Source: Bacteroidota bacterium | GTDB taxonomy: Bacteria > Bacteroidota > Ignavibacteria > UBA10030 | Direction of reading: 5' to 3' | Length of the DNA stretch: 64,000 nt | NCBI GenBank assembly: GCA_035286705.1 | Contig: DATECW010000088.1 | Span: 2,853 to 66,852, forward strand | Part shown: positions 1,669 to 58,741 of the stretch, one piece after another | Layout: each line of letters starts with the position of its first letter | Position numbering within the stretch: the first letter of the stretch is position 1 | Translations under genes and position numbers: made by a program | Notes under the pieces: generated by a model | Told to the model about the DNA's origin: nothing | What the model saw: only the letters and a program-made list of their open reading frames with translations | Databases searched by the model: none

Positions 1669-2436
1669 TCAGCGCGTCAGTCTGTAAATCGCTACGTTTG
1701 TCCACAGACTGTTAAGGCGACCGGCAGCAAGTTGAGAGAGTCGAATATGCGCCAACAGTACCGGATGCTGAGGATCAACCGACACTTGCCCCAGACCCTG
1801 TTTGTCCGTTCTCACAACGGTCGTGTTCCGGTTCGTTATCACGCGAACCGGAGCATTGGAGACTGCCACACCTTCATAGAGCAACTGGAACTGAATGGTC
1901 GCCCGATCCTGCCCGGTATCCTTCCACGATTTCACCACTATCTCCAACGGCAATCCGAGCACTGAATCCTGCGGCGTATGAGAATCCGTTGCGACAACGA
2001 TCTTCATAATGCGGCTGTACGTTTCCCTGAATTCCTCAACGTGAGGCGTGAGGTAGTGTGACGCCTCTCTCTTTGTCAGTCCGATCTCTTCTCGTAGATA
2101 CTGTTCAGCCAGATCTCCTTTGAACGTGATCTCCCGCTGCTTCACACCCGTTGCAACGATCATGGTTGGCTCGGGAGGAAGCGAACCCAACAAGGTCGAA
2201 TCCGACGGGTCGCCTGCAAGGGCAATGGAGACGCCGGCGGGTAAATAGGCACGCGGGTCAACGAAGCGGTCAACACCTTTGATGGGCTCTCCATGCGGAA
2301 AATGCTCCGCAACAAGCGCAGAGATCGTGATCCGCGTCTTATCCTTGTTCCATTTCGCTGCGAGCCAGGCATCATGGGCATGAGCGGAAAGTGTGACAAG
2401 AACCATCACCACGACAGCACCGGAGACACGTTTCAT
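1669..2436 (-). CDS. Periplasmic DUF4198/COG5266 (CbiK-like) putative metal-binding protein
   Basis: Signal peptide ends ...LSAHA, with mature N-terminal His (HDAWL...) as in DUF4198 proteins. Size about 255 aa. Family assignment is from memory, not a search. Confidence 0.45.
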   Translation of the reverse strand: MKRVSGAVVVMVLVTLSAHAHDAWLAAKWNKDKTRITISALVAEHFPHGEPIKGVDRFVDPRAYLPAGVSIALAGDPSDSTLLGSLPPEPTMIVATGVKQREITFKGDLAEQYLREEIGLTKREASHYLTPHVEEFRETYSRIMKIVVATDSHTPQDSVLGLPLEIVVKSWKDTGQDRATIQFQLLYEGVAVSNAPVRVITNRNTTVVRTDKQGLGQVSVDPQHPVLLAHIRLSQLAAGRLNSLWTNVAIYRLTR

Positions 2437-2484: not shown

Positions 2485-3216
2485 CTATTGCGCAACAGCC
2501 AGATGACGTTCTGTGTGTACTGACACATCATCGCTGAGCCTTCCATCTCTCAGGTAAATACATCGTTTTGCAAATCGAAGGTTTTCCGGATTGTGAGTTA
2601 CCATGATGATCGTGTGCCCTTCGGAATTCAGGCGTTGAAGAATCTTCATGATTTCATCGCTCGTCCCGGTATCCAGGTTCCCTGTCGGTTCGTCAGCAAG
2701 AACAATCGGCGGCTGATTCACAAGTCCACGCGCAATCGCAACCCGCTGCTGCTCCCCCCCGCTCAGCTCATCCGGAAGCCGAAATGCTTTTGAGCCCAAA
2801 CCGACATTTTCGAGAATCGCTTTTGCCATGATCTCTTGCTCATCGTTGTTGCGACCTGTGATGACCAATGGGATCATGACGTTCTCGAGAATGGTCAAAT
2901 ACGGCAACAATTGAAAGGACTGAAACACGAAGCCCAGATACTCACGGCGAAAATCCGCCCTGCGTTCGTCGCTCAACGAATACACATCAATGCCATCCAC
3001 AATGACCGACCCCTCAGACGGATGATTCAATCCACCCAGAATAGACAGGAGCGTGCTTTTACCGGAGCCTGACGGGCCCATGACCGCGACGAATTCTCCC
3101 TGAGCGATTTCAACCGAAACTCCGTCCAGCGCAGGGACGCACTCTTTACCGGTGTTATATGTTTTTTTCAATTGCTGAATCTGGACAAGGCTCATATTCT
3201 TCGTTCCATTGTTCAC
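2485..3216 (-). CDS. ABC transporter ATP-binding protein (MacB/LolD-type)
   Basis: Walker A GPSGSGKST, signature LSGGEQQRVAIARGL and Walker B ILADEPTGNLD. Confidence 0.9.
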   Translation of the reverse strand: MNNGTKNMSLVQIQQLKKTYNTGKECVPALDGVSVEIAQGEFVAVMGPSGSGKSTLLSILGGLNHPSEGSVIVDGIDVYSLSDERRADFRREYLGFVFQSFQLLPYLTILENVMIPLVITGRNNDEQEIMAKAILENVGLGSKAFRLPDELSGGEQQRVAIARGLVNQPPIVLADEPTGNLDTGTSDEIMKILQRLNSEGHTIIMVTHNPENLRFAKRCIYLRDGRLSDDVSVHTERHLAVAQ

Positions 3217-3229
3217 AAATTAAGAATGC

Positions 3230-4390
3230 CTACAATGCCTTTAGGGCGACCGTCGGATCGAGCCGCGACGCCTTATATGCAGGGTAGATACTTGAAACCA
3301 GTCCCACGGAAACAGCGAGCATTATCGAAAATGCAAACAATGCATAATCGGCTGACCAGCCGGCCGTCCCATTCACTGTCATCAATGGAGTTACCAACTG
3401 TGCAGCACCTGCACCGATGAAATATCCGCTCACCCCCGACAGAAAGCTCGTGAGAAATGCCTCCGTGAGAATGATCTTCATGACATGGGTTTGGCGGAAC
3501 CCGATGGCGCGGAAGATACCGATCTCCCTTGTTCGTTCATTCACGGACGCCATCATATTCGTGATAACAATAAGAGCTGCCACGAGGAGGACCACCCCGG
3601 AGATCCCATACGAGAAATGCTCAAACCGGTGCATCGCCTCCATTTTTGATTCAATCGTCTGACGAATGGCCACCACCTTCGCCCCGGGCAATTTCTCCGA
3701 TGTCTGGCGCACAATCTCCTCGATGGGACAGTCGTAACAGAGAGCCGCGACTTCGACGAGGCTCAATTCATCCGGTTTGCCGAACAATCGCTGGGCTTCC
3801 GCAAGATCAATGAATACAACGCCATCGTCTTGCGAACCGGTTGGTTCGAGGACCCCCGCAACGGTAAACGATTCTCCTTGGATCTCGAAAGACTGGTTCA
3901 AGTCGAGCCCGAGCGACTTCTTCGCGTCTGCTCCAATGATCGCCTGATCCTTCGTTGCCGGTCTCCGTCCAACCAACTTCCACCATTTCTTCAGTTGCAG
4001 TTCTTGATCGAACTCGACACCGACAACGAGGACGGTTCGGTCTATCACCTCGGTTATATTGAGAAGCTTCGGAGCGATGATCCTAATATTCTTGCTGTTC
4101 TCGATCGTGAGAATCTCCTGCGCGTCTTTTGTACGAAGCTGCTTCACATCCAAAGCAACGCCAGAGACCGCCATTCCACCGTAGTTCAGCGAGAGGTCAT
4201 CAGATTTTGGAGTGATGAGAATATTCGCTCCAAACTCGTCTAATTTGTTGGCAATATCTGCATTCATGATCCTGGCCACCGTAATGAGTGTGACAACCGT
4301 ACTGACGGCAATGGTTAGTCCAAGAACAAGAAAGAGCATCTTGGACTTTCGCCGTCGAAGATTGTTGAGCGAGATGTTGTAGAGTTTCAT
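3230..4390 (-). CDS. ABC transporter permease, FtsX/MacB family
   Basis: N-terminal TM helix, large periplasmic domain, three C-terminal TM helices. Size and topology fit FtsX-like permeases. Adjacent to the ABC ATPase. Confidence 0.8.
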   Translation of the reverse strand: MKLYNISLNNLRRRKSKMLFLVLGLTIAVSTVVTLITVARIMNADIANKLDEFGANILITPKSDDLSLNYGGMAVSGVALDVKQLRTKDAQEILTIENSKNIRIIAPKLLNITEVIDRTVLVVGVEFDQELQLKKWWKLVGRRPATKDQAIIGADAKKSLGLDLNQSFEIQGESFTVAGVLEPTGSQDDGVVFIDLAEAQRLFGKPDELSLVEVAALCYDCPIEEIVRQTSEKLPGAKVVAIRQTIESKMEAMHRFEHFSYGISGVVLLVAALIVITNMMASVNERTREIGIFRAIGFRQTHVMKIILTEAFLTSFLSGVSGYFIGAGAAQLVTPLMTVNGTAGWSADYALFAFSIMLAVSVGLVSSIYPAYKASRLDPTVALKAL

Positions 4391-4458: not shown

Positions 4459-5133
4459 TTAGATTCGCCTCTGCCACCGGACGACCAATTGCTCGTCGAT
4501 CTGAATTTCGTTCCCAGCGACGGTATTGGGGAGGGCGTCCGGCGGGTACTTCCCGCATGAACCACTCACCGGCTCGAGATCGTTCAACTCCCATGTCGAG
4601 CCGCAAGAGTTGCAAACCAGCTTGTCGCCCTTCATGTGGAACCGAGTCGAATTGCACGGTTCACACATGCTCACGGCTGTCACCACCTTTCCCTCGCCGG
4701 TGATATAGGCAAGAAGGGGTATATTGTTCAGTTCGGTGGAATACTGAAAGGCAATGAACTTCCGTTCCCTGAGCAGGTCGAGTGGTAGTATGATCTTTCG
4801 ATTCTCGACTTTTGCAGGGACATCGATCATCTGCTCTCCCGTCACACTGTAGCTCGCAGGCGAGACAATTGCTGGAGACGCCTTGATGACTGGGTTACCG
4901 CTCTCTGGAAGGTTGAAATATACCCAGCCGCCGAACACGGCAACAACTCCGAGCGCGATGAATATTTTCAACCGATTCTTGCCCGACGGTCTATGGTTTG
5001 CCACAACTCGGTCGTGTTTTTCCTGCCAAAGAGGTTTTGCCGGTTTCTTCCCGGTCAGTGAAGCTCCGCATCCGATGCAGAAGTTCGAATCAGGCTCGAG
5101 AGCCTTTCCACATTCTGAACAAAAGTTTGCCAT
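4459..5133 (-). CDS. Zinc-ribbon / TM / Cys-rich membrane protein (DUF2318-like)
   Basis: N-terminal CxxC...CxxC zinc ribbon (CSECG...CIGCG), one TM helix, C-terminal CEPCN...CNSCGS...CGKY motifs. Resembles the DUF2318 membrane proteins that accompany FtsX-type ABC transporters. Confidence 0.5.
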   Translation of the reverse strand: MANFCSECGKALEPDSNFCIGCGASLTGKKPAKPLWQEKHDRVVANHRPSGKNRLKIFIALGVVAVFGGWVYFNLPESGNPVIKASPAIVSPASYSVTGEQMIDVPAKVENRKIILPLDLLRERKFIAFQYSTELNNIPLLAYITGEGKVVTAVSMCEPCNSTRFHMKGDKLVCNSCGSTWELNDLEPVSGSCGKYPPDALPNTVAGNEIQIDEQLVVRWQRRI

Positions 5134-5168: not shown

Positions 5169-7361
5169 TTACAATCTTGCACTTACACCTATGACCGGAA
5201 GAAATGGAATGATTGTTAGTTGTTCTTTCGAAGAATACGTCTCATCCCACATGTAGTGCACGATGTTCTTTTGATTGTAGGCATTCAGTACTTCCAAATA
5301 GACATCGAGATCGAACGATGCAAATTGAAAATGTCGAGTTACACGAACGTCGAGTCGATTATATGCCGAATAACGATCCGAGTTATGGATGCCGGGAATG
5401 GGAAACCAGCGTTCTTCGTTCGGGTCGTACCAGGACGAAGCGACCGGTGTGTATGGCCTTCCGCTGCCATAGCGGAAGCGCAAACCGGCTTGCCAATGTT
5501 CCGAGAATTTGTAGTTTGAAACGACACTTATCAAGTGTGGCCGGTCAAAATCGAAAACGTGCAGATCGCTGTTTGTTCCTTCTCTCCGCTTTGACAGAGA
5601 ATAGGTGTACGACAACCAGCCGAAGAATCCTTGACCATTCTTGAGTTGAACGTAAGACTCTACGCCGCGTGAGTATCCGTCGCCATTATTGGAAAGATTC
5701 CAAAGCGAATCGATTGTAATGAGTCGAGAAAGATTCTTGTTGTACAGCTCAAGGCTCACCACCATTGCGTCACCCACCTCGTGCCTGATGCCGATGCCAT
5801 AGCTTTCAGCACGCTTGGATTTGAGATTGCTGTTGATATCCAGCTCAAACGGTCGTGGTGACTGATAATACCATCCGTAGCCTGCCGAAAGACTCATGTG
5901 TTCATTCCAGGCATAGGAAAGATTGAATCGCGGGGAGAACGTACTCTCCTTGCTTTTCGCAATGTAGTCATATCGAACACCAACGCTCGCACTTAGCGAT
6001 GGGGAGATGGTCCATCTGTCATCAACATAAAGTGAAGGCTTCATGGATGTTCCGGTTCCCCGAAGTTTTAGCTCGTTGAAGTTCAAGGCTATTTCGAGCG
6101 GGACATCAATGGTGACATCTTCCTTCTCTCGACCGAGCCATCCGCCGATATGCAGCTCATTTGCGGGAAAGATGACGGTGAAATCCTGCTTGAGCGTCCA
6201 TTCTTGAATGTTGTATGCTTCTACGGCATTACGCGGTTGAACGGAAGAGCTTTTCGCTTGACTCCATGAGACGATAAAATCCGAAAGAAAGAACTCGCCG
6301 AGCAGAGAGCGAAGGCGGCCTGTTACAACACCGCTTTTGTTTTCCCAGGAAAAATCTCCTGTGTAGTTGGGACGGTCAAAAAAACCGTACATCCGTTCTC
6401 TGGAGTAAAGCCCGGAGAAGGTCAATTTATGGTCTTGTGAAAGGTTGAAATCCACTTTTGAGTTAATATCAAAGAAGTACGGCAGCACGCTGTAATCGCT
6501 GGCAAGATCAGTATATTTGAGCAGCACGTCGAAATAACTCCGCCGGGCAGAGAGCATTGCTGTGCCATTGGCAAATGCGAGCGGCACTTCGACTGTTCCA
6601 CTCGCATCCGACATGCTGATCGATGCCTCGCCATTCAGCTTCTCCATATTGCCGGTCCGATTCTCAATCAACAACACCGAAGAGAGCCTATCACCATAGC
6701 GGGCAGGGAATCCCGCCGCATAGAACTCGACTTTCTCGACGAGTCGGGAGTTGAAAATGCTCCAGTAGCCGCCGCCCATCATATCGAAATGGAATGGGTT
6801 TCGGATTGTTGCGCCGTCGTACAGCACGAGATTTTCATCCGGACTTCCGCCGCGCACGTAGAGCTTTGAATTGTCACCATCGGATGCGATTCCTGGGAGT
6901 GTCTGAACCACCCAGAAGATATCCTGGGCGGAACCTGGTGTATTGACCACCATTTGTTTTCCGAGACGCGCTGTGATGCCGCTTGCATCGTAGCGCTCGG
7001 GTTTCGGTGTAATGACGATTTCTTCCGTTTCCAAAGCTGTTTCTTCCAGCAGCACGTCAATAACATTTTCCCCCTGTTTGATTCGAACGTTTGAAACGAG
7101 CTTCTCCTTGAAACCGATCATCGAAAATCTCACGGTATACGTTCCAATCGGGATATTTTGAATAGAGTAACGTCCCTGTGAATTTGTTGCAGATCCAATG
7201 TTCGTGCCCTTGAGAATAACGTTGACCAGCTCAAGCGGCTGCTTTGATCCCTTGTCCAGCACAACTCCTTCAAGACTGCCCGTTTGCGCTTGTGCGGGGA
7301 GACAAACGACTGTGAGTGCAAACAATAAGACCATTAGAGACGATTTCATTTTGTGTCTCAT
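5169..7361 (-). CDS. TonB-dependent outer-membrane receptor with N-terminal CarboxypepD_reg-like domain
   Basis: Signal peptide, then a CarboxypepD_reg-like region (GVVLD...QPLELVNVILKGTNIGSATNSQGRYSIQNIPIGTYTV), plug and about 22-strand barrel length. The start may be at the MKSSL Met (7349). Confidence 0.8.
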   Translation of the reverse strand: MRHKMKSSLMVLLFALTVVCLPAQAQTGSLEGVVLDKGSKQPLELVNVILKGTNIGSATNSQGRYSIQNIPIGTYTVRFSMIGFKEKLVSNVRIKQGENVIDVLLEETALETEEIVITPKPERYDASGITARLGKQMVVNTPGSAQDIFWVVQTLPGIASDGDNSKLYVRGGSPDENLVLYDGATIRNPFHFDMMGGGYWSIFNSRLVEKVEFYAAGFPARYGDRLSSVLLIENRTGNMEKLNGEASISMSDASGTVEVPLAFANGTAMLSARRSYFDVLLKYTDLASDYSVLPYFFDINSKVDFNLSQDHKLTFSGLYSRERMYGFFDRPNYTGDFSWENKSGVVTGRLRSLLGEFFLSDFIVSWSQAKSSSVQPRNAVEAYNIQEWTLKQDFTVIFPANELHIGGWLGREKEDVTIDVPLEIALNFNELKLRGTGTSMKPSLYVDDRWTISPSLSASVGVRYDYIAKSKESTFSPRFNLSYAWNEHMSLSAGYGWYYQSPRPFELDINSNLKSKRAESYGIGIRHEVGDAMVVSLELYNKNLSRLITIDSLWNLSNNGDGYSRGVESYVQLKNGQGFFGWLSYTYSLSKRREGTNSDLHVFDFDRPHLISVVSNYKFSEHWQAGLRFRYGSGRPYTPVASSWYDPNEERWFPIPGIHNSDRYSAYNRLDVRVTRHFQFASFDLDVYLEVLNAYNQKNIVHYMWDETYSSKEQLTIIPFLPVIGVSARL

Positions 7362-7365
7362 TGAC

Positions 7366-8295
7366 TTAGAATTTGCGCCCTCCGTACTTTTTTTCTACCT
7401 CATCGACTAGCTGCACGATAGTGTATGTGCCCTCGCGAATCTTGTCATCAACAAAAGTCTTGACCTCCTGTGCTCCGCGTGGATGAGCACAACTGCAGTC
7501 TTTCAGTTCATCAATGCCGCATTGACCGCACGGGCACGTGAAGCGTGAAAAGACTTCCACTCGATCCGCAATGGTTGCGGGCTTGGAGGTGTTGGAGATT
7601 CTTGAAGCTAAGGCGAACATCTCGCTTACCGGCTGTTTGGGTACCGTGAGCTTTGTCGATTGCCCTGTCGTGTGGGCAAGAGAATCGTAGCGAGAGGAAA
7701 GCGCGGACTTCATCCACCCGAACGTGTTATTGACGGCAAGTATGATTTCCTGCGATGATTTTCCGGATTGAAGGTTCGTCCTGATGAATTGCCGTTCCTG
7801 TATGGCGGTGTTGCACCGGCAGGTATCGAGAGGCTGTTCCCCACACGCTCCGCACGAACAAATGAATTGTGAGGCAATGTCCAGCACTTTCCTCTCCAAG
7901 GCCGCATCGCTGCTCTTCAACTCCACGAGAGAGGCTTGTGGTTCCGGTTTCCCCCGCTCACCACGCTCGTAGAGTACAACAATGAAGAGAATCCCGGCAG
8001 TCAACAAGATAAGACCGACTACTCCGGGACTCCGGCGCCATTTCGTATCGACTCGTCGATCCTTTTTCTTGTATCGCGCTTGTGCTGGAGCCAGTTGTCG
8101 AGGGTGATGAGCTCGTTCTTGCCGAATTTCGGAACCGCAATTTGCGCAGAACTTCGCCCCTGGAATGCTTTCAAAGCTGCATGTAGGGCATGGCCTCAAA
8201 TCATTTGCCTTCTCTGTTTTCCCAACCTCAATACCACAGTTCGCACAAAACTTTGTATTATCCCTGTTTTCCGCACCACATTCGTTGCACTTCAT
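7366..8295 (-). CDS. Membrane-anchored protein with an N-terminal double zinc ribbon and two C-terminal PCYCGC-like Cys modules
   Basis: MKCNECGAE...FCANCG and CPTCSF...FCANCG are two zinc ribbons. One TM helix follows. Then two repeats: FICSCGACGEQPLDTCRCN and FTCPCGQCGIDELKDCSCAH. Confidence 0.55.
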   Translation of the reverse strand: MKCNECGAENRDNTKFCANCGIEVGKTEKANDLRPCPTCSFESIPGAKFCANCGSEIRQERAHHPRQLAPAQARYKKKDRRVDTKWRRSPGVVGLILLTAGILFIVVLYERGERGKPEPQASLVELKSSDAALERKVLDIASQFICSCGACGEQPLDTCRCNTAIQERQFIRTNLQSGKSSQEIILAVNNTFGWMKSALSSRYDSLAHTTGQSTKLTVPKQPVSEMFALASRISNTSKPATIADRVEVFSRFTCPCGQCGIDELKDCSCAHPRGAQEVKTFVDDKIREGTYTIVQLVDEVEKKYGGRKF

Positions 8296-8315: not shown

Positions 8316-8666
8316 TCACTTCCTCGCTGTGAGTTTCTCAGCCTCTAATCCATCTCCAATCTGTCCTGAGACAAGTTCAACTTCAGCTCTCGTCTCATCA
8401 ACAAGACGCATAACCTTAACAATGCCGAGTTCTTGCTTGTGGGGCAAAGGGGCACTGGCGCCATGATTGTGTCCGCCGCTTGAGGTTGAAGGCTGATGAT
8501 ATTGGTAGAGAATAAAAAGGTCTCCCACTTTTACATCGGCTCCCTTGGAGAATTCGAGGTAGATCTCTTTCGGGAGGCCATCGACGACTTGAATCCGGTA
8601 CGATGTGCTGCATGAAGAAACAAATAAAGAAAGGACGGATAGAGTACCATATGCAAGATATTTCAT
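8316..8666 (-). CDS. Small lipoprotein with a His-rich insert; paralog of the 10324-10710 product
   Basis: Lipobox LFVSSC. VKVGDLFILYQY and IVKVMRLVDE...EVELVSGQIG blocks are shared with the 10324-10710 product. Carries a GGHNHGASAPLPH insert. Confidence 0.5.
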   Translation of the reverse strand: MKYLAYGTLSVLSLFVSSCSTSYRIQVVDGLPKEIYLEFSKGADVKVGDLFILYQYHQPSTSSGGHNHGASAPLPHKQELGIVKVMRLVDETRAEVELVSGQIGDGLEAEKLTARK

Positions 8667-8680
8667 ATTTGTTCCCTCGT

Positions 8681-9337
8681 CTAGAACATGCTTCCCCCAC
8701 GTGCAGCCCAGATGACGATCATCACAGCCCCCATGACGATGCCGCCAATGATGAGATAGTCCGACATTCCTCCCCTCCGGTCCATCATCATGCTGCCGTG
8801 GCCATCTCCTGATGCTGCCGGGTGCCTTGTCGTTTCGATGATAACCTCAGGCCGTAATCGTCGCTCGCCCAGCGCGCCAATGTGAAACATGGTCTTGTGC
8901 TCACTCGCCTGGGAAGGTGTAAAGCTGACGACATAGACTCCTGGTTGCGCGCTTTCCTCGACTTCCTGGTCAAAATTCATATCATGCTCCGGCGACAGAA
9001 GAACGCGCGTGGAGTCGCCCTCGCCATACATCGCGCTCATATGGCGTTCTTCTGGCGCATGCAAGAACGATGTGTGGAAGGAAACCTTCGCGTTCGAGAC
9101 GGGTTGGCCGGTTGTCTTATCCACGAGCTTGAGGGTAAAAACCGCCTTTTCACCCACTTGAAGTGGTGGGAAGAGTGCAATTGCCTTCACATCTCCGAAT
9201 TCGACTTCCTTTTCAAGAGCTGATTCAAGTGCCATCTGGTGGCTCCCCGAATCCATTCTTCCGTGAGTTCCCATCATCCCGACACCCATGCAGGATACGA
9301 GGAACAGACTTAGAGTAAATGCGACCATGCTTTTCAT
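8681..9337 (-). CDS. Secreted protein with C-terminal TM anchor; Ig-like (YtkA/FixH-like) putative metal-binding domain
   Basis: Signal peptide. TLKLVDKTTGQPVSNAKVSF block is similar to TLTDEKSSQPVEKAKVTIEI in the 12037-12879 product. His/Met-rich tail (DGHGSMMMDRRGGM) and a final TM helix. Confidence 0.45.
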   Translation of the reverse strand: MKSMVAFTLSLFLVSCMGVGMMGTHGRMDSGSHQMALESALEKEVEFGDVKAIALFPPLQVGEKAVFTLKLVDKTTGQPVSNAKVSFHTSFLHAPEERHMSAMYGEGDSTRVLLSPEHDMNFDQEVEESAQPGVYVVSFTPSQASEHKTMFHIGALGERRLRPEVIIETTRHPAASGDGHGSMMMDRRGGMSDYLIIGGIVMGAVMIVIWAARGGSMF

Positions 9338-9367
9338 TGTTTTTGATCCTTTTGTGAATTCCGTGTG

Positions 9368-9676
9368 TCAGGCTCCGACATATTGTTTCGGACTGCTCTC
9401 AAACTGTTCCCGGCAGGCGTGCGAGCAAAAATAGAACCGGATCCCTTTGTACTCAACGAAATATGGGGGACTGTTCTTATCCACATTCATTCCACAAACG
9501 AGGTCGATGGCTGTTTCACCATCATTTGTCCCGGATGTGAAGTAGCCTGGATCCTTGATGAAGGTCAACATGCACTCTGCGCTGCAGAAGTAGTATGTCT
9601 TGTCGAGAAATGTCTTTACGACCGTCCTCGAATCATCTTCTTCGATATCCATTCCACAGACGATGTCCCGTATCAT
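9368..9676 (-). CDS. Tandem YHS/TRASH-domain metal-binding protein
   Basis: Two copies of VCGM...(Y)YFCS..C (VCGMDIEEDD...YYFCSAEC and VCGMNVDKNS...FYFCSHAC). The start is chosen at the Met just before the first VCGM. Confidence 0.7.
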   Translation of the reverse strand: MIRDIVCGMDIEEDDSRTVVKTFLDKTYYFCSAECMLTFIKDPGYFTSGTNDGETAIDLVCGMNVDKNSPPYFVEYKGIRFYFCSHACREQFESSPKQYVGA

Positions 9677-9686
9677 GGCTTCCCTT

Positions 9687-10313
9687 TCATTCACTGCCGT
9701 AGAAGTACCGTGCCACGTCATACCCCAGCCTGCTGATCAGCCCCTGCAGAAGTTGTCCATCGGTGTAAAACGTCCCCTGCTGCTCGCCGCCGCTGTAATA
9801 GTAGGTCGTCGTCGAGAAAGTGGATTCCACGTGCTTTGCCCAAACGACGGTCGAGGAATCGCAATCGACCAGCCTGACTGTGACGCTGCCTGATGCGATT
9901 CGGTTTGAATATGAGTTTGTGTATTTCACTTCGCCAACCGACGTAAACAGGTTTCCTGTCAGGAGATATCGACATTGAAGACCTTGCTTCAATCCATGAA
10001 TGGTATGCATATCGGGAATGCCGTTTACGTTGAGATTGTTCGCAAGCAGATAATTGCGTACAACCGTTGCAGGAATAATTTTCATATGCGCGGAGTGTTC
10101 AAGAAGGTTGACAATAACCTCATCGGACACCTGTCCACCCAAATTCGAAAGAACGCTTTCGGTTTCGAACGGCATGATCGCAATCGCCTCGCCGGGCTTG
10201 ATGATGACAGAGGGACTGATCTGTACCGTCCTCTTCGTAACCGAGCCTGTTCCGCAACCAGTCAGAAAGAACATAGCCAGGAACACCGTTGAAAGGTAAA
10301 TGATTGTTTTCAT
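9687..10313 (-). CDS. Lipoprotein, function unknown (LpoB/LPP20-like size class)
   Basis: MKTIIYLSTVFLAMFFLTGC lipoprotein signal. The rest is soluble, with no recognised motif. Start moved to the internal Met. Confidence 0.45.
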   Translation of the reverse strand: MKTIIYLSTVFLAMFFLTGCGTGSVTKRTVQISPSVIIKPGEAIAIMPFETESVLSNLGGQVSDEVIVNLLEHSAHMKIIPATVVRNYLLANNLNVNGIPDMHTIHGLKQGLQCRYLLTGNLFTSVGEVKYTNSYSNRIASGSVTVRLVDCDSSTVVWAKHVESTFSTTTYYYSGGEQQGTFYTDGQLLQGLISRLGYDVARYFYGSE

Positions 10314-10323: not shown

Positions 10324-10710
10324 TTATCGAAGCCGTTGTTTCTCAACGATGTCGTTCGACTGAAGCTCACCGCTGATGAGTGTCACCGCTGCGAAGTGTC
10401 CATCGAATAATTCGACGACTTTCGCTTCGCCGACCTTGATTTTCCGATAACTCGGTCTCCCGTTACGCGCCGTCGGAACATCTCGTTGATATTCAGAAAG
10501 CCACCGCGTATTATCCACTTTTACTCGGTACACGAACATGATATCGCCGACCTGTATTCCGTCGTCAGTTCCAATGCAGATGTGGACCCTGTCTTCGAAT
10601 TTCATCAGTACGGATCCACGCATTGTTTGATGGCTTGTAGAACACCCGCCAAACGCACTCACAATCAAGAGCATACTAATCGCTATCGGGATGAATCCTG
10701 TCGTTTTCAT
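10324..10710 (-). CDS. Small lipoprotein, paralog of the 8316-8666 product
   Basis: Lipobox AFGGC. IQVGDIMFVYRV and IKVGEAKVVELFDGHFAAVTLISGEL blocks align with the paralog. Confidence 0.5.
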   Translation of the reverse strand: MKTTGFIPIAISMLLIVSAFGGCSTSHQTMRGSVLMKFEDRVHICIGTDDGIQVGDIMFVYRVKVDNTRWLSEYQRDVPTARNGRPSYRKIKVGEAKVVELFDGHFAAVTLISGELQSNDIVEKQRLR

Positions 10711-11741
10711 TTGACCACTCCCGTATCAATTATGTTCGCTTCTTCGACGAGCTTCCGGATAGGGCGATTAACCTTTCGCTCCAACATGAGCCATAGCAAT
10801 GTAGTGAGGACAATCGCAACACCGGCCAGTAGAAGAAGCGAAGTCCTCACTTCTTGTGCCGACCGGTTCATCTCTCTTTGCTGCTGAGCGAGAAGTTCTC
10901 TTGTGTCGCTCCCAAACGAGTCAAGTTGGTCAAGAAGCCTGAGTCTAAGGCTGTCAAGTGATGACATGATGAGATTGTGCGAGACAAATAGTTCCGCTCT
11001 CTCTTGCTGATGATTCCGCTTCCCTTCATTTGACAGCCTCTCCACAACGTCGAACATGCCACCTGCGATCAGATGGAAACGATGCTCAAGATTTGTAAGC
11101 ACGTCGAAAGTCGACTTGGACACAGCCTGCGATTCCTCGAGATCTGAAACCGCATCGATGACCTTCACACGGGCTCTCTTGAAATCGCTAAGGGCATCAG
11201 TCGCCTCTCCACGGTGGAATCGTTCTACCGCCAACATTTCCTCAAGCACGCCGCTTTCCATCGCACTCGACGCCTCTGAAAGAAGTCGCACGGTTTCCAC
11301 TGTTCTTCTTGCGTCGAGTTGAATCTCGTTTGTCCGAAGCCCAATGAACAGTGCGACACCGAGGACACTGATTGTCATGAGCAAAAATGCCGACCGAATT
11401 CTCCTGTGGCTGCCACGCAGCATGAAGTTGATGAGTTGCTTGATCCGTGATTCCTCCAGTTTGCTTGTCCGCTTGCCCAGCGGGATTTGACTTGGAAGCC
11501 CTGGATCGTATTCCTCTACAAAGAAACAATGATCAGCTACAGCCCCTATCGTGCCAACGCGATGTACGCTCTCACGAACAAGTTCCACTTCATCGTCGCG
11601 CGAAAGCAACTCCATTCGGGAGATTTTGGATGATGGTGAAAAGTATTCGGTGACCATGATTTCTGCAATTCCCAGGGCCTCGAGCTCTTCAACGAGCCAG
11701 TGGACTCGCACCGTGTTGATGTATGCGGTGATCTTTTTCAT
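10707..11741 (-). CDS. P-II-like (GlnB/PII-NG, DUF3240-type) N-terminal domain fused to a two-TM coiled-coil membrane module
   Basis: N-terminus MKKITAYINTVRVHWLVEELEALGIAEIMVTEYF matches the GlnB fold start (MKKIEAIIKP...GI.GMTVTEV). TM helices at about 120-140 and about 300-320 flank a roughly 160-aa helical segment. No output domain. Confidence 0.5.
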   Translation of the reverse strand: MKKITAYINTVRVHWLVEELEALGIAEIMVTEYFSPSSKISRMELLSRDDEVELVRESVHRVGTIGAVADHCFFVEEYDPGLPSQIPLGKRTSKLEESRIKQLINFMLRGSHRRIRSAFLLMTISVLGVALFIGLRTNEIQLDARRTVETVRLLSEASSAMESGVLEEMLAVERFHRGEATDALSDFKRARVKVIDAVSDLEESQAVSKSTFDVLTNLEHRFHLIAGGMFDVVERLSNEGKRNHQQERAELFVSHNLIMSSLDSLRLRLLDQLDSFGSDTRELLAQQQREMNRSAQEVRTSLLLLAGVAIVLTTLLWLMLERKVNRPIRKLVEEANIIDTGVVK

Positions 11742-12036: not shown

Positions 12037-12879
12037 TTAGTGCCCATCATAAGCAAACCTTGCATGTTTGACCTCATTGTCGCTCTGAAAGCTCACATCA
12101 ATCATGTACCTTCCTTTTTCATCGAGCTTCAGGCCGCCGCCATAATGATTCATCATCGAGGATAAATCAACACTGCCCGATTTCTCCGATGGCGCAACGA
12201 TCTCAATCGTAACTTTCGCTTTCTCTACGGGCTGGCTTGATTTCTCATCCGTGAGAGTGACCATTACATGGTGAGTTCCGGCCATCATTGCTTCCATCAT
12301 CTTATTATGTTCATCGTCTTTCATATCGGGTTTTGTTCCTTCTTCCATCTTTCCGTGATCCATCCCTTTCATCTCTCCATGCATCATGTGCCCACCCATC
12401 GATGAATCTTTTTTGCCTTGCATCATCGTGCCCATCATTCCGTGATCCATTTTGCCCATATCGTGTTTCTTTTCCGAGTGCATCATACCTCCAGCCTCGG
12501 ATGAGTTCTTACCACTTTGCATCATTGTTCCCATCATCTTCTTATGTTCATCTTGCGTTATGAGCCATACTCGGACCTGTACACCTTCAACAGACTTTTC
12601 GAACGTCGGCTTTCCCATCATAGCGGACATCCTCTCTTGCCGGTCGGTTGCGGACAATTGCTTCTTTTCCAGAGTCATACCGCACTTGGGGCATTTCCCG
12701 GGTTTATCGGAAATGACATCCGGATGCATGGGACACGTGTACACAACCTTTGATTGCGCTTGTGCCTGTGTCGTTTGCTGTTCAGGCGTTTGATGATTGT
12801 GTTCCTGAGCCACGGATGTATTCCGCAAGCCGAAGAATGCCGCAATTGCAATTACGATAATGAAATGATTCTGTCTCAT
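12037..12879 (-). CDS. Secreted Met/His-rich metal-binding protein with N-terminal heavy-metal-binding domain (TCPMHP motif) and C-terminal Ig-like domain
   Basis: Signal peptide, then YTCPMHPDVISDKPGKCPKCGMTL (HMBD as in CusB/Cu oxidases). Long M/H/G/K-rich repeats (MMGTMMQ..., GGHMMHGEMKGMDHGKMEEG). Confidence 0.65.
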   Translation of the reverse strand: MRQNHFIIVIAIAAFFGLRNTSVAQEHNHQTPEQQTTQAQAQSKVVYTCPMHPDVISDKPGKCPKCGMTLEKKQLSATDRQERMSAMMGKPTFEKSVEGVQVRVWLITQDEHKKMMGTMMQSGKNSSEAGGMMHSEKKHDMGKMDHGMMGTMMQGKKDSSMGGHMMHGEMKGMDHGKMEEGTKPDMKDDEHNKMMEAMMAGTHHVMVTLTDEKSSQPVEKAKVTIEIVAPSEKSGSVDLSSMMNHYGGGLKLDEKGRYMIDVSFQSDNEVKHARFAYDGH

Positions 12880-12893
12880 ACTGTTCTCCTCTG

Positions 12894-13232
12894 TTACTGT
12901 TGATTGTGTTGGTGGTTTGATTTTTCCTTCTTCGTGTCTTCAAGCATTTCCAAAACAATGCGGAGCATCCGCTTGTCATCTATCATGGCTCTGCACATTT
13001 CCGTCATCTTCATCGTATCGCCGACTGCGTAATAGATCATCTTCTTCATCATCGTTGCGTGCATCTGATTGTTAGAGGCAATATGGTCCATCAGCAAGTC
13101 CATCATCACTGAATCTTTCATCATCTCCATCATTTGCATGTGTTTGTGCTGTCCCAAAGCGAACGATGAGAGGGCAGTCAGGAGAGCCACAAGGAGGATC
13201 AAAGGTCTTATTTTCATAGTTTTTTTCTTCAT
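12894..13232 (-). CDS. Secreted Met-rich helical protein (SilE/PcoE-like metal sponge candidate)
   Basis: Signal peptide, about 25% Met in the mature part (HMQMMEMMKDSVMMDLLMDH...), His-rich C-terminus (NHQHNQQ). Located directly downstream of cusA. Confidence 0.45.
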   Translation of the reverse strand: MKKKTMKIRPLILLVALLTALSSFALGQHKHMQMMEMMKDSVMMDLLMDHIASNNQMHATMMKKMIYYAVGDTMKMTEMCRAMIDDKRMLRIVLEMLEDTKKEKSNHQHNQQ

Positions 13233-13235
13233 CGT

Positions 13236-16200
13236 TTAGTCTTCTAGGAGCTGCCCTTCGGTGGCCAATTCCTTCTTCAAGCTCCAGCTCTTCCACAAAT
13301 AGTAGATGACGGGATAGACAGCGAGTTCCAGCAAGAAGGAAGATGTGAGACCGCCGACCATCGGGGCAGCGATGCGTTTCATAACATCCGCGCCGGTGCC
13401 CGTGCTCCACATGATCGGGAAGAGGCCGATCATGGTCGTCAACACGGTCATGAGCTTGGGCCGCACGCGCTGGACGGCCCCGTGGTGGATGGCCTCCCGC
13501 AGATGCTGCAAGCTTCTCATCTTGCCTTCTTTCTTCCACTGTTCATACGCTATGTCGAGGTAGAGAAGCATGATCACCCCCGTTTCCGCGTCCAGGCCGG
13601 CCAGTGCAATAATGCCCACCCAGACAGCGATACTCAGGTTATACCCGAGGATGTAGAGCAGCCAGAAGGCTCCGATGAGCGAGAACGGCACCGCCAAAAA
13701 CACTATTCCCACCTTGGTCATCGATCGCGTGCTGAGATAGAGCAGCACGAAGACGATGAAGAGCGTCAGGGGAATGACGAGCATCAGGCGCGTTTGCGCC
13801 CGCTCCATGTACTCGTACTGACCGCTCCAAATGATATTGTATCCCGCAGGCAGTTTTATCTTTTCTGCAACGGTTCGCTTCGCATTCTGTACGTATGTTC
13901 CGACATCGATGTCTTTGATGTCGACATAAACCCAGGCATTGGGACGCGTATCTTCACTTCGAACGACCATCGGACCTTTGCGGGGAGTGATCGTGGCAAG
14001 CTGACCGATCGGAATCTGTTCCCCTGTTGGCGTCGGGACGAGCACACGTTGAATCGCCTCGAGATCATCGCGGAGTTCGCGGCTATATCGCAGGTTGACA
14101 CTGTACCTTTCGAGGCCCTCCACCGTGTTTGTGATGCTCATTCCTCCCATTGCCGTCTGAATGACCATTTGCACATCGCCGACCGTCAAGCCGTAGCGGG
14201 CGGCCTCCCTGCGATCGATATCGAAATCAAGGTAGTTCCCGCCGACGGCCCGTTCGGCAAAGGCACTCAATGTGCCGGGAACGGTGCGCATGACGGACTC
14301 AACTTCTTTCCCTATTTCTTCCAACACTTTGAGATCGGGGCCGGCGATTTTGATCCCCACCGGAGTCTTAATCCCGGTGCTCAACATATCTGTGCGGGTT
14401 TTGATCGGCATCGTCCAGGCATTCGTCAGTCCCGGAAACTGGATAGCACGGTCCATCTCGTCGACCAGCTTCTCCACTGTCATGCCGGCGCGCCATTCAC
14501 TTTCTGGTTTAAGCATGATCGTCGTTTCGATCATATCCAGACCAGCGGGATCGGTCGCGGTCTCAGCGCGGCCGATCTTGCCGAACACATGATGCACTTC
14601 GGGAAATTGTCGAAGAATCTTGTCGGTTTGCTGAAGGAGCTCTCTTGCCTTTGTGATCGACATTCCCGGCAACGTTGTCGGCATATACAGGAGGTCACCT
14701 TCATACAGGGGCGGCATGAACTCAGAGCCAAGTTGGCTGTAAGGGAGATAAGTCACCACGAGGAGAGCCAGCGTCAGCCCGATCACCCATTTGTTATGCT
14801 TCAACACAAAATCGACAACAGGGTGATACAGCCTGATCAAGACCCGACTGAGAGGATGGCGTTCCTCCGACCGGATTTTTCCGCGAATCCAATATCCCAT
14901 CAGCACAGGAACGAGCGTGACCGCAAGAATGGCTGCGGCTCCCATGGCGTAGGTCTTGGTAAAGGCAAGCGGTTTGAACAGCCGGCCTTCTTGCGCTTCC
15001 AGGGTAAAGACGGGAAGGAACGAAATGGTGATGATAGCCAGAGAAAAGAACAACGAGGGACCTACTTCCTTGGCTGCATCCAATATCACTTGCCAGTGTT
15101 CCTTGCGCTGTGCCGGGGGTTTCTCATGCTCGCGTTCAAGATGCTTATGACCATTCTCGACCATGATGATAGCGGCATCAACCATGGCTCCGATGGCGAC
15201 AGCGATTCCACTCAGTGACATGATGTTCGCGTTAATGCCCTGCATTTTCATGACAATGAAGGAGATCAAGACTGCCGTCGGCAGTGTAATGATCACGACA
15301 AATGAACTCCGGGCATGCAAGAGGAACGCAATAATCACGAGAGCCACAACAACCATCTCTTCAATGAGGCTTTCGGTGAGCGTATCAATGGCTCGCTCAA
15401 TGAGGCTTGACCTGTCGTAGGCCATCTCGATTTTCACGTCCTCCGGCAACCCTTGCTTCAGGCCTTCTAACTTTTTCTTCACGTTCTCGATTACTTCCAG
15501 GGCGTTCTGGCCATATCGCATCACAATAATGCCGCCGACGACTTCGCCTTCGCCGTTGCTTTCGGCAAGACCACGGCGCATCAGAGGTCCAATCGTCACG
15601 TCCGCAACATCCGCCACGTACACTGGAGTGCCGCTTTTCTTGTCCACCATAAGCGGGATGTTCTTGACATCATCAACGGACTTTATATATCCAAGGCCCC
15701 GCACCATGAACTCCATCTCACTCATTTCGATAACTTCACCGCCAACGTCGTTGTTGGAGTTTTTGATTGCCATCTCAACCATATTGAGCGGGATGTTATA
15801 GGCTAAGAGCTTTGTCGGATCGACCGTTACCTGATACTGTTTGACAAATCCACCGATGCTTGCTACCTCTGCGACTCCTTCAACGGCCGTGAGTTCGTAT
15901 TTGAGATACCAATCCTGGTATGACCGAAGCTCCTGCAGCGAGCGCTTATCGGATGTGAGTGTATACATAAAGACCCAGCCTACGCCGGTTGCATCCGGTC
16001 CCAGTGCGGGAACAACGTTCGGAGGAAGACGCTTCTGTGCATAGTTCAGGTATTCTAGGACCCGACTACGGGCCCAGTAGAGATCGGTTCCGTCCTCGAA
16101 GATGACGTAGACCAAGGAATAGCCGAAGAACGAATAGCCACGCACAACTTTGGATCCCGAAACAGAGACCATTGCGGTGGTGAGTGGATAGGTCACCTGG

Positions 16201-16388
16201 TCTTCCACAATGCGTGGAGATTGACCCGGATACTCGGTATAAATGATCACCTGGACGTCGCTCAAATCGGGGATCGCATCAATCGGAATGCTCAGCATCG
16301 AATAGACACCCCAACCGATAAGAAAGAGCACCGCGAGAATGACCATGAACTTATTTCGAATCGACGCTTCAATGATTTTTTCTAACAT
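13236..16388 (-). CDS. cusA: Heavy-metal efflux RND transporter, CusA/CzcA (HME) family
   Basis: 1050 aa, 12-TM RND layout, the long antisense ORF typical of HME pumps, and adjacent adaptor and OMF genes. Cu/Ag specificity is inferred from the surrounding Met-rich/HMBD proteins. Confidence 0.9.
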   Translation of the reverse strand: MLEKIIEASIRNKFMVILAVLFLIGWGVYSMLSIPIDAIPDLSDVQVIIYTEYPGQSPRIVEDQVTYPLTTAMVSVSGSKVVRGYSFFGYSLVYVIFEDGTDLYWARSRVLEYLNYAQKRLPPNVVPALGPDATGVGWVFMYTLTSDKRSLQELRSYQDWYLKYELTAVEGVAEVASIGGFVKQYQVTVDPTKLLAYNIPLNMVEMAIKNSNNDVGGEVIEMSEMEFMVRGLGYIKSVDDVKNIPLMVDKKSGTPVYVADVADVTIGPLMRRGLAESNGEGEVVGGIIVMRYGQNALEVIENVKKKLEGLKQGLPEDVKIEMAYDRSSLIERAIDTLTESLIEEMVVVALVIIAFLLHARSSFVVIITLPTAVLISFIVMKMQGINANIMSLSGIAVAIGAMVDAAIIMVENGHKHLEREHEKPPAQRKEHWQVILDAAKEVGPSLFFSLAIITISFLPVFTLEAQEGRLFKPLAFTKTYAMGAAAILAVTLVPVLMGYWIRGKIRSEERHPLSRVLIRLYHPVVDFVLKHNKWVIGLTLALLVVTYLPYSQLGSEFMPPLYEGDLLYMPTTLPGMSITKARELLQQTDKILRQFPEVHHVFGKIGRAETATDPAGLDMIETTIMLKPESEWRAGMTVEKLVDEMDRAIQFPGLTNAWTMPIKTRTDMLSTGIKTPVGIKIAGPDLKVLEEIGKEVESVMRTVPGTLSAFAERAVGGNYLDFDIDRREAARYGLTVGDVQMVIQTAMGGMSITNTVEGLERYSVNLRYSRELRDDLEAIQRVLVPTPTGEQIPIGQLATITPRKGPMVVRSEDTRPNAWVYVDIKDIDVGTYVQNAKRTVAEKIKLPAGYNIIWSGQYEYMERAQTRLMLVIPLTLFIVFVLLYLSTRSMTKVGIVFLAVPFSLIGAFWLLYILGYNLSIAVWVGIIALAGLDAETGVIMLLYLDIAYEQWKKEGKMRSLQHLREAIHHGAVQRVRPKLMTVLTTMIGLFPIMWSTGTGADVMKRIAAPMVGGLTSSFLLELAVYPVIYYLWKSWSLKKELATEGQLLED

Positions 16389-16429
16389 GTCTTAAATCCT
16401 TTGTCAGGTTCTATTCGTCAAGAAGAACA

Positions 16430-18130: not shown

Positions 18131-18152
18131 TACTTGGCTCCTTGAATATCCG

Positions 18153-19448
18153 TTATTGAACTTGTGCTGAGATTTCCGAGATGTCCATGCCGACAGCCTG
18201 CTCGAGCTGGGCCTGACTTGCCATATGGCTCATAACTGACATGTAATAATCGAGCTTGGCCATCAGAAGCATGCGATAGGCATCGATGAGCATGAGAAAC
18301 TCCGTCTTTCCGGTTTGGTATGCCGCGACAGTCGATTGCAGGGTCTGTTCTGCCTGCGGGATGACAGTGTTCTTGTACAAGAGCACCAGATTCTGATTTG
18401 TTTGAACCTTTACAAGAGCATCCTGAACCTCAAACAAGGTCATGTTTTTCATAGCGGTAAGATCTTCCTCGGCCTTCCTTACATTCAGTGCGTTTTCATC
18501 AGTCTTCGACGTATATTTTCCGCTCGACCACGGAGTCAAGGGAATGCTGATTCCAAGCATTGCCGACCAGAAATCGTTTTTGGTCATGGCCATGTCCTTG
18601 TACATGAAACGCAGCATCAGATCGGGGAAATATTCCTTTTTCGAAAGCGAGAGTTCAGATTTGTTCATTTCGATGTTAAAATTCATCGCTTTCAGTTCCG
18701 GACGAGATTCGAGGGCTAGAGGTCGAATTTGCTCAAACGTCCAGCGTGGAATATCCTTCTCAATTTCAGGTACGAACCCGAGCGGTGCATTTGCTGGACG
18801 ACTCAGGATTGTGTTAATCATCGATTCGATGACCGCACGCTCCTTTTGCAGATTGAGACCATCATTGATAAGCGTGGACAACTCTGTTTGTGCGCGCAAG
18901 ATATCGGGCTGCTTCCCCATCCCAACTTCGTATTGTTTTAAGGCGATATCGACAAACCGGCGCATGAGGTCCTGATTTTCTGCATTGATCTGAATTTTGC
19001 GCTGCACGAGGTAGAGCTCAAAGTACGATGACTTGAGTTCGCGAAGAACTTTTCGCTCTAACGCATTATATCCCTGATCCATCATATTGGCGTTGTTTTC
19101 CGCTGCCTTGCCCATATCAGAAAGCTTCCCCGGGAATGGAAACATTTGCTGTATGAAATAGTCCATTTCCATTTGATTTTTGAGCGGATTGGGAAATGAC
19201 TGAACTGGCGTCTGAAAGAACTCGACGCCGAATTGTGGCGCATCCCAGGATGTCACTTGATCAACGCGGGTTCTCGCGGCCGCGGTTTGATGCCGGGCAG
19301 CGCGAAGCTGAGGATTGTTTTCGAGCGCCTCCTTCACAAGTCCATCAAGACGAAGGGGCTTCTTCTCTTCTTGTGAGAAAGCCTGGTAAGTGACGAGAAC
19401 CGCCATCAAGAAGAAAACGAGAGAACGGAAGAATCGGAACATGGGCAA
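18153..19448 (-). CDS. cusC: TolC-family outer-membrane efflux protein (CusC/CzcC)
   Basis: Signal peptide, two-repeat helical OEP architecture, 431 aa, directly upstream of the adaptor. Confidence 0.85.
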   Translation of the reverse strand: MPMFRFFRSLVFFLMAVLVTYQAFSQEEKKPLRLDGLVKEALENNPQLRAARHQTAAARTRVDQVTSWDAPQFGVEFFQTPVQSFPNPLKNQMEMDYFIQQMFPFPGKLSDMGKAAENNANMMDQGYNALERKVLRELKSSYFELYLVQRKIQINAENQDLMRRFVDIALKQYEVGMGKQPDILRAQTELSTLINDGLNLQKERAVIESMINTILSRPANAPLGFVPEIEKDIPRWTFEQIRPLALESRPELKAMNFNIEMNKSELSLSKKEYFPDLMLRFMYKDMAMTKNDFWSAMLGISIPLTPWSSGKYTSKTDENALNVRKAEEDLTAMKNMTLFEVQDALVKVQTNQNLVLLYKNTVIPQAEQTLQSTVAAYQTGKTEFLMLIDAYRMLLMAKLDYYMSVMSHMASQAQLEQAVGMDISEISAQVQ

Positions 19449-30524: not shown

Positions 30525-30539
30525 TCAGAATTGTCCTCC

Positions 30540-30929: not shown

Positions 30930-30937
30930 GGCGTTCT

Positions 30938-31786: not shown

Positions 31787-31834
31787 CGAGATTTGAGAAG
31801 TGGATATTTACAGGTGCAGCCTACCGCATTCAAT

Positions 31835-31980: not shown

Positions 31981-31989
31981 TCTTTGAAA

Positions 31990-32661: not shown

Positions 32662-32679
32662 GATCTGTCGATCACTTTG

Positions 32680-58729: not shown

Positions 58730-58741
58730 CGTTTTTGTCTC

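Follow-up and report, generated by a model that had tools for sequence, protein, structure and literature searches.

A tandem, five-cysteine CcmH-family protein with a zinc-ribbon anchor in a copper/silver island of a Bacteroidota genome

The window analysed here is a stretch of 64,000 nucleotides from a Bacteroidota bacterium of the Ignavibacteria, lineage UBA10030 (GenBank assembly GCA_035286705.1, contig DATECW010000088.1). A gene on its minus strand encodes a 309-residue protein, hereafter the target, in which a double zinc ribbon is followed by a single transmembrane (TM) helix and by two modules that carry five invariant cysteines each (Cys5 modules). On sequence comparison, both modules are divergent CcmH-family domains, and their correct family is CcmH (PF03918), not PCYCGC (PF13798), which a first-pass annotation made from the letters alone had proposed. 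New here are a CcmH-family domain with five cysteines, its tandem duplication, the zinc-ribbon N-terminal anchor and a new set of constant partners. An anonymous “zinc ribbon domain-containing protein” thereby gains an identity as a five-cysteine, tandem and differently anchored form of CcmH. Judged from sequence and setting, the target probably handles cysteine thiols or metal in copper-resistance islands. By analogy with known systems it may be a periplasmic thiol-disulfide subunit, the redox arm of a DUF2318/MacB-type ATP-binding cassette (ABC) module, a reading held tentatively and with less than even confidence.

Architecture and family of the protein

The target gene is real. Its reading frame fills the interval 7366–8295 exactly, as one open reading frame (ORF) with an ATG start and a Shine-Dalgarno-like AAAGGA motif 8–13 nt upstream. 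The public protein collection holds an identical 309-residue protein and about 98 homologues, which are annotated, where at all, as “zinc ribbon domain-containing protein”, “CcmH/NrfF” or hypothetical. The protein has 18 cysteines, eight of them in the zinc ribbons and ten C-terminal to the hydrophobic helix. The ribbons form two CxxC...CxxC units (C3/C6/C17/C20 and C36/C39/C50/C53) and match the Pfam double zinc ribbon PF12773 (DZR) over residues 3–54 with 38.3 bits against a cut-off of 27.3 (E = 1.5e-9), and Zn_Ribbon_1 with E = 3e-7. There is one hydrophobic segment, at about residues 88–114, which the AlphaFold2 (AF2) model renders as a helix from residue 90 to 112. The model of the whole protein has a mean predicted local distance difference test score (pLDDT) of 81.6, with both modules above 90. 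Taken together, the Pfam and AF2 results, the motif scan and the repeat comparison confirm the order of two N-terminal ribbons, TM helix and two cysteine modules that had been described at first pass.

Each module spans about 65 residues and is built on the motif F-x-C-x-C-G-x-C-G-x4-L-x2-C-x-C. By sequence, the two modules are a true tandem repeat: aligned with each other by BLASTP they give E = 7e-7, and comparison of the two profiles by hhalign gives a probability of 98.35% (E = 1.1e-14, 65 columns), which bears out the two C-x-C-G-x-C-G...C-x-C repeats noted at first pass. A scan of all six reading frames of the window for the pattern C.C..C.{5,10}C.C finds exactly two instances, and both lie inside the target ORF. 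As 0.02 occurrences are expected per shuffled window, the motif is not a chance occurrence. All ten C-terminal cysteines are invariant in 38 of 38 aligned homologues, and so is H271, which lies two residues past the last cysteine of module 2.

The assignment to CcmH comes from several comparisons. The Pfam CcmH model matches residues 126–193 of the target with 23.7 bits (E = 3.2e-5), without reaching the gathering cut-off of 25. It also matches 34 of 40 more distant relatives at E<=0.01 (best E = 2.2e-9), and one relative, P0172, scores 33.7 bits and so lies above the cut-off. Zinc ribbons aside, the only solved structures found by profile search were those of CcmH, the thiol-disulfide oxidoreductase of the System I CcmFH holocytochrome c synthase, from P. 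aeruginosa (2HL7) and E. coli (2KW0). In this alignment the C-P-K-C of CcmH falls on C148-G-A-C151 of the target, the module 2 counterpart being C256-G-Q-C259. The L-R of the CcmH LRCxxC motif is replaced, and three extra invariant cysteines stand beside the CxxC pair. When the full-length AF2 model was submitted to Foldseek, 2HL7 was the top match (probability 1.0, TM-score 0.68, rmsd 2.2 Å over 68 columns) and 2KW0 the second (TM-score 0.60). These matches of the model probably correspond to module 1.

Module 2, when modelled alone, shows the same order of helices, with a pLDDT of 93.3. A Foldseek search of this model against the PDB returned no match, and the fold assignment of module 2 therefore rests on homology; a PDB sequence profile search with module 2 alone also gave nothing useful. 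The homology was measured by hhalign against an alignment of genuine CcmH proteins from ccm operons, a class that scores about 70 bits on PF03918. Module 1 aligns to this class with 97.9% probability (E = 4.8e-13), and module 2 does so with 96.8% (E = 2.9e-10). The five cysteines of each module align one-to-one with the five invariant cysteines of the ccm-operon class, and a hidden Markov model (HMM) of that multi-Cys class matches both modules.

The target has several features in common with CcmH: a three-helix fold, by the Foldseek matches that probably correspond to module 1; a CxxC that aligns with that of CcmH in the loop joining helices 1 and 2; and a periplasmic, membrane-tethered location, which for the target is predicted. 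Many of its relatives are, besides, in genetic linkage with ccmF. Where CcmH has the two cysteines of LRCxxC, each target module has five invariant ones, and the domain is duplicated in tandem. The anchor differs as well: CcmH has a signal peptide and a C-terminal TM helix, whereas in the target the TM helix is N-terminal and follows a double zinc ribbon on the predicted cytoplasmic side. The multi-Cys class, which comes from non-proteobacterial ccm operons, likewise has a His near the last cysteine, but it is a single domain of canonical architecture, with C-x-C-x-C spacing, encoded directly after ccmF. A weak NCBIfam match (E = 0.0078) points to NrfF (TIGR03147), the CcmH paralogue of the NrfEFG heme lyase and a CcmH-fold partner of a CcmF-type protein. 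This match scores 15.9 bits against a curated cut-off of 159, and the target locus lacks an nrfA, nrfE, nrfG context.

Membership of the PCYCGC family has next to no probability. PCYCGC proteins are lipoproteins with seven conserved cysteines (PMC13068155), and the likeness, an alternating Cys/Gly run within a Cys-dense extracytoplasmic domain of unknown function, is superficial. They are Firmicutes lipoproteins with C-Y-C-G-C spacing, whereas the target motifs C-S-C-G-A-C-G and C-P-C-G-Q-C-G have C-x-C-G-x-C spacing and contiguous P-C-Y-C-G-C is not present. The target has no PF13798 match at E<=1, all positive matches being to CcmH. Nor do the precomputed Pfam lists name PF13798 for any of the 108 proteins that the target homologue search returned or for any of 67 multi-Cys CcmH proteins, and it matched none of the 40 more distant relatives scanned. 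Of the two families anticipated by the first-pass annotation, the zinc ribbon was therefore found and PCYCGC was not.

The topology is predicted. There are eight Lys or Arg residues in the 15 positions before the TM helix and three in the 15 after it, a bias common to nearly all homologues. In some relatives the zinc ribbons are absent and the helix is preceded by a short basic N-terminus alone, which looks like the pattern of a signal anchor. Because of this positive-inside bias and the signal-anchor pattern, the target is placed N-in/C-out, as a bitopic inner-membrane protein with cytoplasmic ribbons and periplasmic cysteine modules. CcmH domains are periplasmic. Prediction thus supports the extracytoplasmic location that was proposed for the cysteine modules at first pass, and puts them on the periplasmic side. 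A Fe-S cluster domain was also considered and is unlikely, as the target is a signal-anchor protein whose juxtamembrane RR is not like a twin-arginine (Tat) signal and is not conserved in distant members; we know of no periplasmic route of Fe-S assembly.

The family extends well beyond the window. A profile search with the periplasmic region found 653 clusters (50% identity) at E<=1e-3, 309 of them at E<=1e-10, in several phyla. The tandem form is present in Ignavibacteriales, Melioribacteraceae (including the isolate Melioribacter sp. Ez-97), Calditrichia and metagenome-assembled genomes (MAGs) of Bacteroidota. Further forms keep the five cysteines: a zinc ribbon and TM helix with a single module (about 200 residues), a TM-anchored protein with two module-2-type domains, and a single module without a ribbon. 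Single-module forms occur in Desulfobacteraceae and Spirochaetota, among others, and zinc ribbons are missing from many relatives. For two single-module proteins the context comes down to contigs of 1–2 kb. A divergent paralogue (33% identity) lies at L050 7857–8444, in the same MAG as L009, and is followed by a DUF4198 gene whose product is 53% identical to that of the DUF4198 gene in the window.

Genomic settings of the Cys5 domain

The Cys5 domain recurs in three settings: modules of a DUF2318 protein with a MacB-type ABC transporter, copper/silver efflux islands and ccm operons. The constant neighbours of the target belong to the first of these and are not ccm genes. Synteny was counted over species-level GTDB loci (L numbers), and the scripted count required at least 4.5 kb of downstream sequence. 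The order target, (TonB receptor), FtrD-like, FtsX, ABC was found in 27 of 31 loci. Of the 31, L050 and L059 do not have the true tandem form, and only the distance limit kept L011 from being counted; as corrected, the order is kept in 27–28 of about 29 loci. The TonB receptor stands between the target and the DUF2318 gene in a minority of loci (4/31 by the strict count, somewhat more by eye). CusA is upstream of the target in 19/31 loci, and ccmF lies within 8 kb in 15/43.

In the DUF2318 protein of the window, as in the target, the N-terminus forms a zinc ribbon and a single TM helix leads to a periplasmic domain, here one with five cysteines. Because both share the same build, their sequences suggest that the two proteins act as a pair. 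Read in sequence, the five-Cys motif of the partner is C-E-P-C-x13-C-N-S-C-x15-C; the motif of the DUF2318/FtrD-like family is CxxC-x13-CxxC-x14/15-C (PMC6083913). In three deltaproteobacterial or similar loci the arrangement is compact. At L052 5106–8820, in a deltaproteobacterial MAG, genes for an FtrD-like/DUF2318 protein, FtsX, the ABC ATPase, a single Cys5 CcmH-like protein and a TlpA-like redoxin form a cluster without zinc ribbons and without Cus genes, and L053 and L054 are similar. The L052 locus ties the Cys5 domain to the DUF2318/ABC module and to thiol-redox partners.

A system with the same layout is known from Campylobacter jejuni, in which the fetMP-fetABCDEF cluster encodes FetA (DUF2318 plus YHS), the FtsX-type ABC transporter FetBCD and the membrane-anchored thioredoxins FetE and FetF. 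In other phyla the redox slot of Fet holds a flavin mononucleotide (FMN)-binding protein or a cytochrome (PMC10783030, PMC6083913). In the window, a DUF2318 membrane protein with the family motif is present and an FtsX permease and ABC ATPase adjoin it. The target takes the slot of FetE/FetF in this layout, as a membrane-anchored, predicted periplasmic Cys protein beside a DUF2318 membrane protein and an FtsX-type ABC transporter, its putative redox activity being taken from family membership. FetE and FetF have a thioredoxin fold, however, and are not homologous to the CcmH-fold target. The Fet cluster also has FTR1/P19 and two permeases and is iron-regulated, whereas the window has one permease in a copper-efflux setting. 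The parallel is only partial, because no FTR1/P19 (fetMP) genes were found among the window ORFs scanned.

In the second setting, the target sits in a tight minus-strand array with intergenic gaps of 4–68 nt (Table 1). The array runs from CusC, CusB and a CusA-type pump through Met-rich proteins, lipoproteins, a double YHS protein, a Met/His-rich protein and a 116-residue lipoprotein to the target, and continues with the TonB-dependent receptor, the zinc-ribbon-TM-DUF2318 protein, the MacB_PCD/FtsX permease, the ABC ATPase and a DUF4198 protein. The metal island recognized at first pass is therefore real, as judged by the CusA-type pump and by its HMBD, YHS and Met-rich neighbours; the YtkA-like match of the Met/His-rich protein is weak and sub-threshold. 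The two Met-rich proteins just downstream of the CusA-type pump are probably periplasmic binders of Cu(I) or Ag(I).

Table 1. Coordinates of the target, its parts, neighbouring genes and ccm-operon relatives (RND, resistance-nodulation-division)
Feature	Locus	Position	Strand	Basis or remark
Target ORF, 309 aa: double zinc ribbon, TM helix, two Cys5 CcmH-like modules	window	7366–8295	minus	
Double zinc ribbon, residues 3–54, predicted cytoplasmic	window	8134–8289	minus	Pfam DZR and Zn_Ribbon_1; pLDDT 85–94
Single TM helix, residues 90–112, after basic stretch YKKKDRRVDTKWRR; predicted N-in/C-out	window	7960–8028	minus	Hydropathy, K/R counts, AF2
Module 1, residues 126–196, three-helix CcmH-fold domain	window	7708–7920	minus	Pfam CcmH, Foldseek, hhalign
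Cys5 motif 1 CSCGACGEQPLDTCRC: C146, C148, C151, C159, C161	window	7813–7860	minus	C148-x-x-C151 aligns with CcmH CxxC
Linker between modules, residues 197–240	window	7576–7707	minus	Poorly conserved; pLDDT <50 for 213–231
Module 2, residues 241–309, second CcmH-family domain	window	7369–7575	minus	hhalign to module 1 and to ccm-operon CcmH; AF2
Cys5-His motif 2 CPCGQCGIDELKDCSCAH: C254, C256, C259, C267, C269, H271	window	7483–7536	minus	
DUF4198 protein	window	1669–2436		
ABC ATPase	window	2485–3216	minus	
MacB_PCD/FtsX-type ABC permease	window	3230–4390	minus	
Zinc ribbon, TM helix, periplasmic FtrD-like/DUF2318 domain	window	4459–5133	minus	PF10080, 79 bits
TonB-dependent receptor	window	5169–7361	minus	4 nt downstream of target
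116-aa lipoprotein, Met/His-rich protein, double YHS protein	window	8316–9721	minus	Upstream same-strand genes; gaps 14–30 nt
Copper/silver efflux genes as a block	window	12037–19448	minus	
Met-rich protein with HMBD domain	window	12037–12879	minus	33 Met and 17 His in 280 aa
Met-rich protein	window	12894–13232	minus	20 Met in 112 aa
CusA-type RND pump	window	13236–16388	minus	Motif AIGAMVDAAIIMVEN
CusB-like adaptor	window	16430–18130	minus	HMBD and YHS domains
Outer-membrane factor (CusC)	window	18153–19448	minus	
ccmA-B-C-E-F operon	window	28167–33327	minus	20 kb from target
Single Cys5 protein, first gene of ccm operon	L059	4853–5437		
Single Cys5 protein, first gene of ccm operon	L064	9001–9666		
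Single Cys5 protein, first gene of ccm operon	L065	6462–7061		
Single Cys5 protein, first gene of ccm operon	L060	~7641–8201		
Multi-Cys CcmH, canonical architecture, right after ccmF	L059	7913–8413		
Multi-Cys CcmH, canonical architecture, right after ccmF	L064	12278–12754		
Multi-Cys CcmH, canonical architecture, right after ccmF	L065	9485–9967		

The third setting is that of cytochrome c maturation. The ccmABCEF operon of the window has neither ccmH nor ccmG, and its CcmE (30540–30929) ends in EVLTKCPSKYE, which makes it the Cys type of “variant System I”, described as lacking CcmH and CcmG. When 890 six-frame ORFs of the window were searched with the multi-Cys CcmH HMM, the target was the only match. 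Elsewhere the linkage is direct: ccmF lies immediately upstream of the target homologue in Calditrichia, with gaps of 3–10 nt, and just after the ABC gene in Melioribacteraceae. In four Spirochaetota-type loci the ccm operon opens with a gene for a zinc-ribbon-TM protein that carries one Cys5 module; the operon order is ccmE (Cys-type), ccmF, ccmH (multi-Cys), ..., ccmA, ccmB, ccmC. The multi-Cys CcmH of these operons has the motif C-x-C-G-C-G-x6-C-x-H-x2-C, with five invariant cysteines and no CxxC spacing, and the CcmE beside it is of the Cys type, as read in L059. This class is also present in Latescibacteria, Nitrospinae and Chloroflexi. One of the Spirochaetota-type loci has CcdA-like and thioredoxin genes alongside, and another has genes for a MerR regulator, a P-type ATPase and YHS proteins. 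These operons also encode a protein of about 206 residues with three zinc ribbons and one of about 384 residues.

In L003 and L005 (Calditrichia) and L064 (Spirochaetota type), genes for DUF302, SHOCT and YHS proteins, a P-type ATPase and a MerR or extracytoplasmic function (ECF) sigma regulator recur beside the ccmF/Cys5 genes. Cus islands are therefore not the only place where metal genes and ccm genes occur together. The neighbouring ccmF genes were also tested for an island-specific paralogue clade. A neighbour-joining tree of CcmF, a weak test that drew on CcmF from the loci only, follows taxonomy; for this reason the neighbouring ccmF genes look like housekeeping copies, and a dedicated second CcmF is unsupported.

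A possible thiol-redox role and its alternatives

In the thiol-disulfide role that we tentatively prefer, disulfides or electrons would pass between the tethered modules and periplasmic cysteine motifs by way of the CxxC within each Cys5 knuckle, as in CcmH. These partners would be the cysteine motifs of the DUF2318 protein and of client proteins, the most plausible clients being the CXXCH sites of apocytochromes c matured by CcmF. The ABC ATPase would supply energy or reductant. The module may have been placed in a Cus copper/silver island since Cu(I) attacks these same thiols. Assembly of c-type cytochromes is a key periplasmic target of copper toxicity (PMC4600104), and this sensitivity would explain the location. 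Such a role would link copper defence to the protection of cytochrome c maturation, and would matter to the question of whether CcmH-type components are truly missing from “variant System I”. The first-pass annotation had suggested a “metal sensor or thiol-redox partner”; the second half is a reasonable reading, and the first fares poorly, as described below.

Several observations weigh against the thiol-disulfide role. The five cysteines are equally invariant and, with Gly after the second and third, resemble a metal knuckle as much as a redox site; the related ccm-operon class, with C-x-C-x-C, has no CxxC at all. An electron source (DsbD/CcdA or a module-adjacent periplasmic thioredoxin) was not found among the window ORFs scanned, and ccmF is 20 kb from the target and not adjacent to it. 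Variant System I, with its Cys-type CcmE, is reported to function without CcmH (PMC9084895). As to the module, L020 is a real exception to the conserved order, with no FtrD-like gene downstream of the target, and FTR1/P19 domains were found neither among the window ORFs scanned nor in the gene tables of a set of related loci. As to the family, the target falls just below the Pfam CcmH cut-off, the module 2 model alone has no structural match, and literature searches found no paper describing this five-Cys CcmH-like family.

The main rival, which we regard as possible yet rather unlikely, is that the target is a metal-thiolate protein whose Cys5(+His) knuckles bind Cu(I), Ag(I) or Zn. It could act as a membrane-tethered buffer or chaperone that exchanges metal with the Cus pump or the DUF2318/ABC module, or as a periplasmic metal sensor that reports via the cytoplasmic zinc ribbons. 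The C-x-x-C-G turn and C-x-C pairs are reminiscent of rubredoxin or zinc knuckles and of Cu(I) clusters like the one in CopY. Metal binding would suit the invariance of all five cysteines in each module, not of the CxxC pair alone, and the invariant H271. It would also suit the position of the gene among CusCBA, HMBD, YHS and Met-rich genes, and the ccm-operon CcmH class, which has no CxxC spacing yet keeps five Cys and the His. Set against this, no activity other than that of a thiol-disulfide oxidoreductase is known to us for the CcmH fold, Fet-type modules have redox proteins in the equivalent slot, a TlpA-like redoxin adjoins a single-module relative, and relatives occur in ccm operons away from Cus genes. 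The sensor variant has a further difficulty, as there is no signalling output domain and many relatives lack the ribbons. A role as sensor or anti-sigma factor is likewise unsupported: no zf-HC2 or output domain is present, and the ribbons are dispensable in many relatives.

It is also conceivable, but unlikely, that the target is simply the CcmH of this lineage, a subunit of a variant System I CcmF synthase, for which the DUF2318/ABC and copper links would be secondary or regulatory. Both modules are homologous to ccm-operon CcmH, the ccmABCEF operon of the window has no ccmH, and no CcmH-like ORF other than the target was found in the 64 kb. Moreover, ccmF adjoins in Calditrichia and follows the ABC gene in Melioribacteraceae, the CcmF tree follows taxonomy as for housekeeping orthologues, and single-module relatives open ccm operons. 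However, linkage to FtrD-like/FtsX/ABC is far tighter (27–28 of about 29) than to ccmF (15/43), and neither the window nor its closest relatives have ccmF next to the gene. Spirochaetota-type ccm operons carry a separate CcmH of canonical architecture, so that the zinc-ribbon protein would be an additional component there. The reported function of variant System I without CcmH argues the same way.

A bolder extension of the thiol-disulfide role, which we consider quite unlikely and put forward as speculation, is that the Cys5 CcmH-like protein, the DUF2318 protein and the MacB-type ABC transporter together make up an unrecognised periplasmic pathway of thiol reduction and metal clearing for CcmF-dependent cytochrome c maturation. 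This would be the counterpart of DsbD-CcmG-CcmH in lineages with a Cys-type CcmE, built into copper-defence islands since Cu(I) poisons cytochrome c assembly. DUF2318/Fet-type ABC modules would in this case gain a biochemical role.

Improbable, finally, is that the target serves as redox partner of a Fet-like metal uptake system (TonB receptor, DUF4198, DUF2318/ABC), with no role in cytochrome maturation, acting on the transported metal or the DUF2318 cysteines only. FetABCDEF supports iron acquisition in C. jejuni (PMC10783030), the window has genes for a TonB-dependent receptor and a DUF4198 protein on either side of the module, and the paralogue in L050 adjoins a DUF4198 gene. Yet neither an FTR1 nor a P19 domain is found among the window ORFs scanned, the TonB receptor is present in a minority of loci, and the surrounding genes point to copper/silver efflux, not uptake.

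Other features of the window

A conserved protein of 344 residues (10707–11741, minus strand) has no Pfam match, and most related islands encode an orthologue. On visual inspection its N-terminus may resemble a P-II-like fold, and related loci seem to have a separate P-II gene beside CusA. The island proteins were searched for an unusual-heme c-type cytochrome that a dedicated lyase might serve, and none of them contains a CxxCH, Cx3CH, Cx4CH or CxxCK motif. Two AhpC/TSA-type redoxins and a DUF4149 membrane protein adjoin a Fur-family regulator at 58265–60260 on the minus strand, and this cluster is probably an oxidative-stress unit unrelated to the target.

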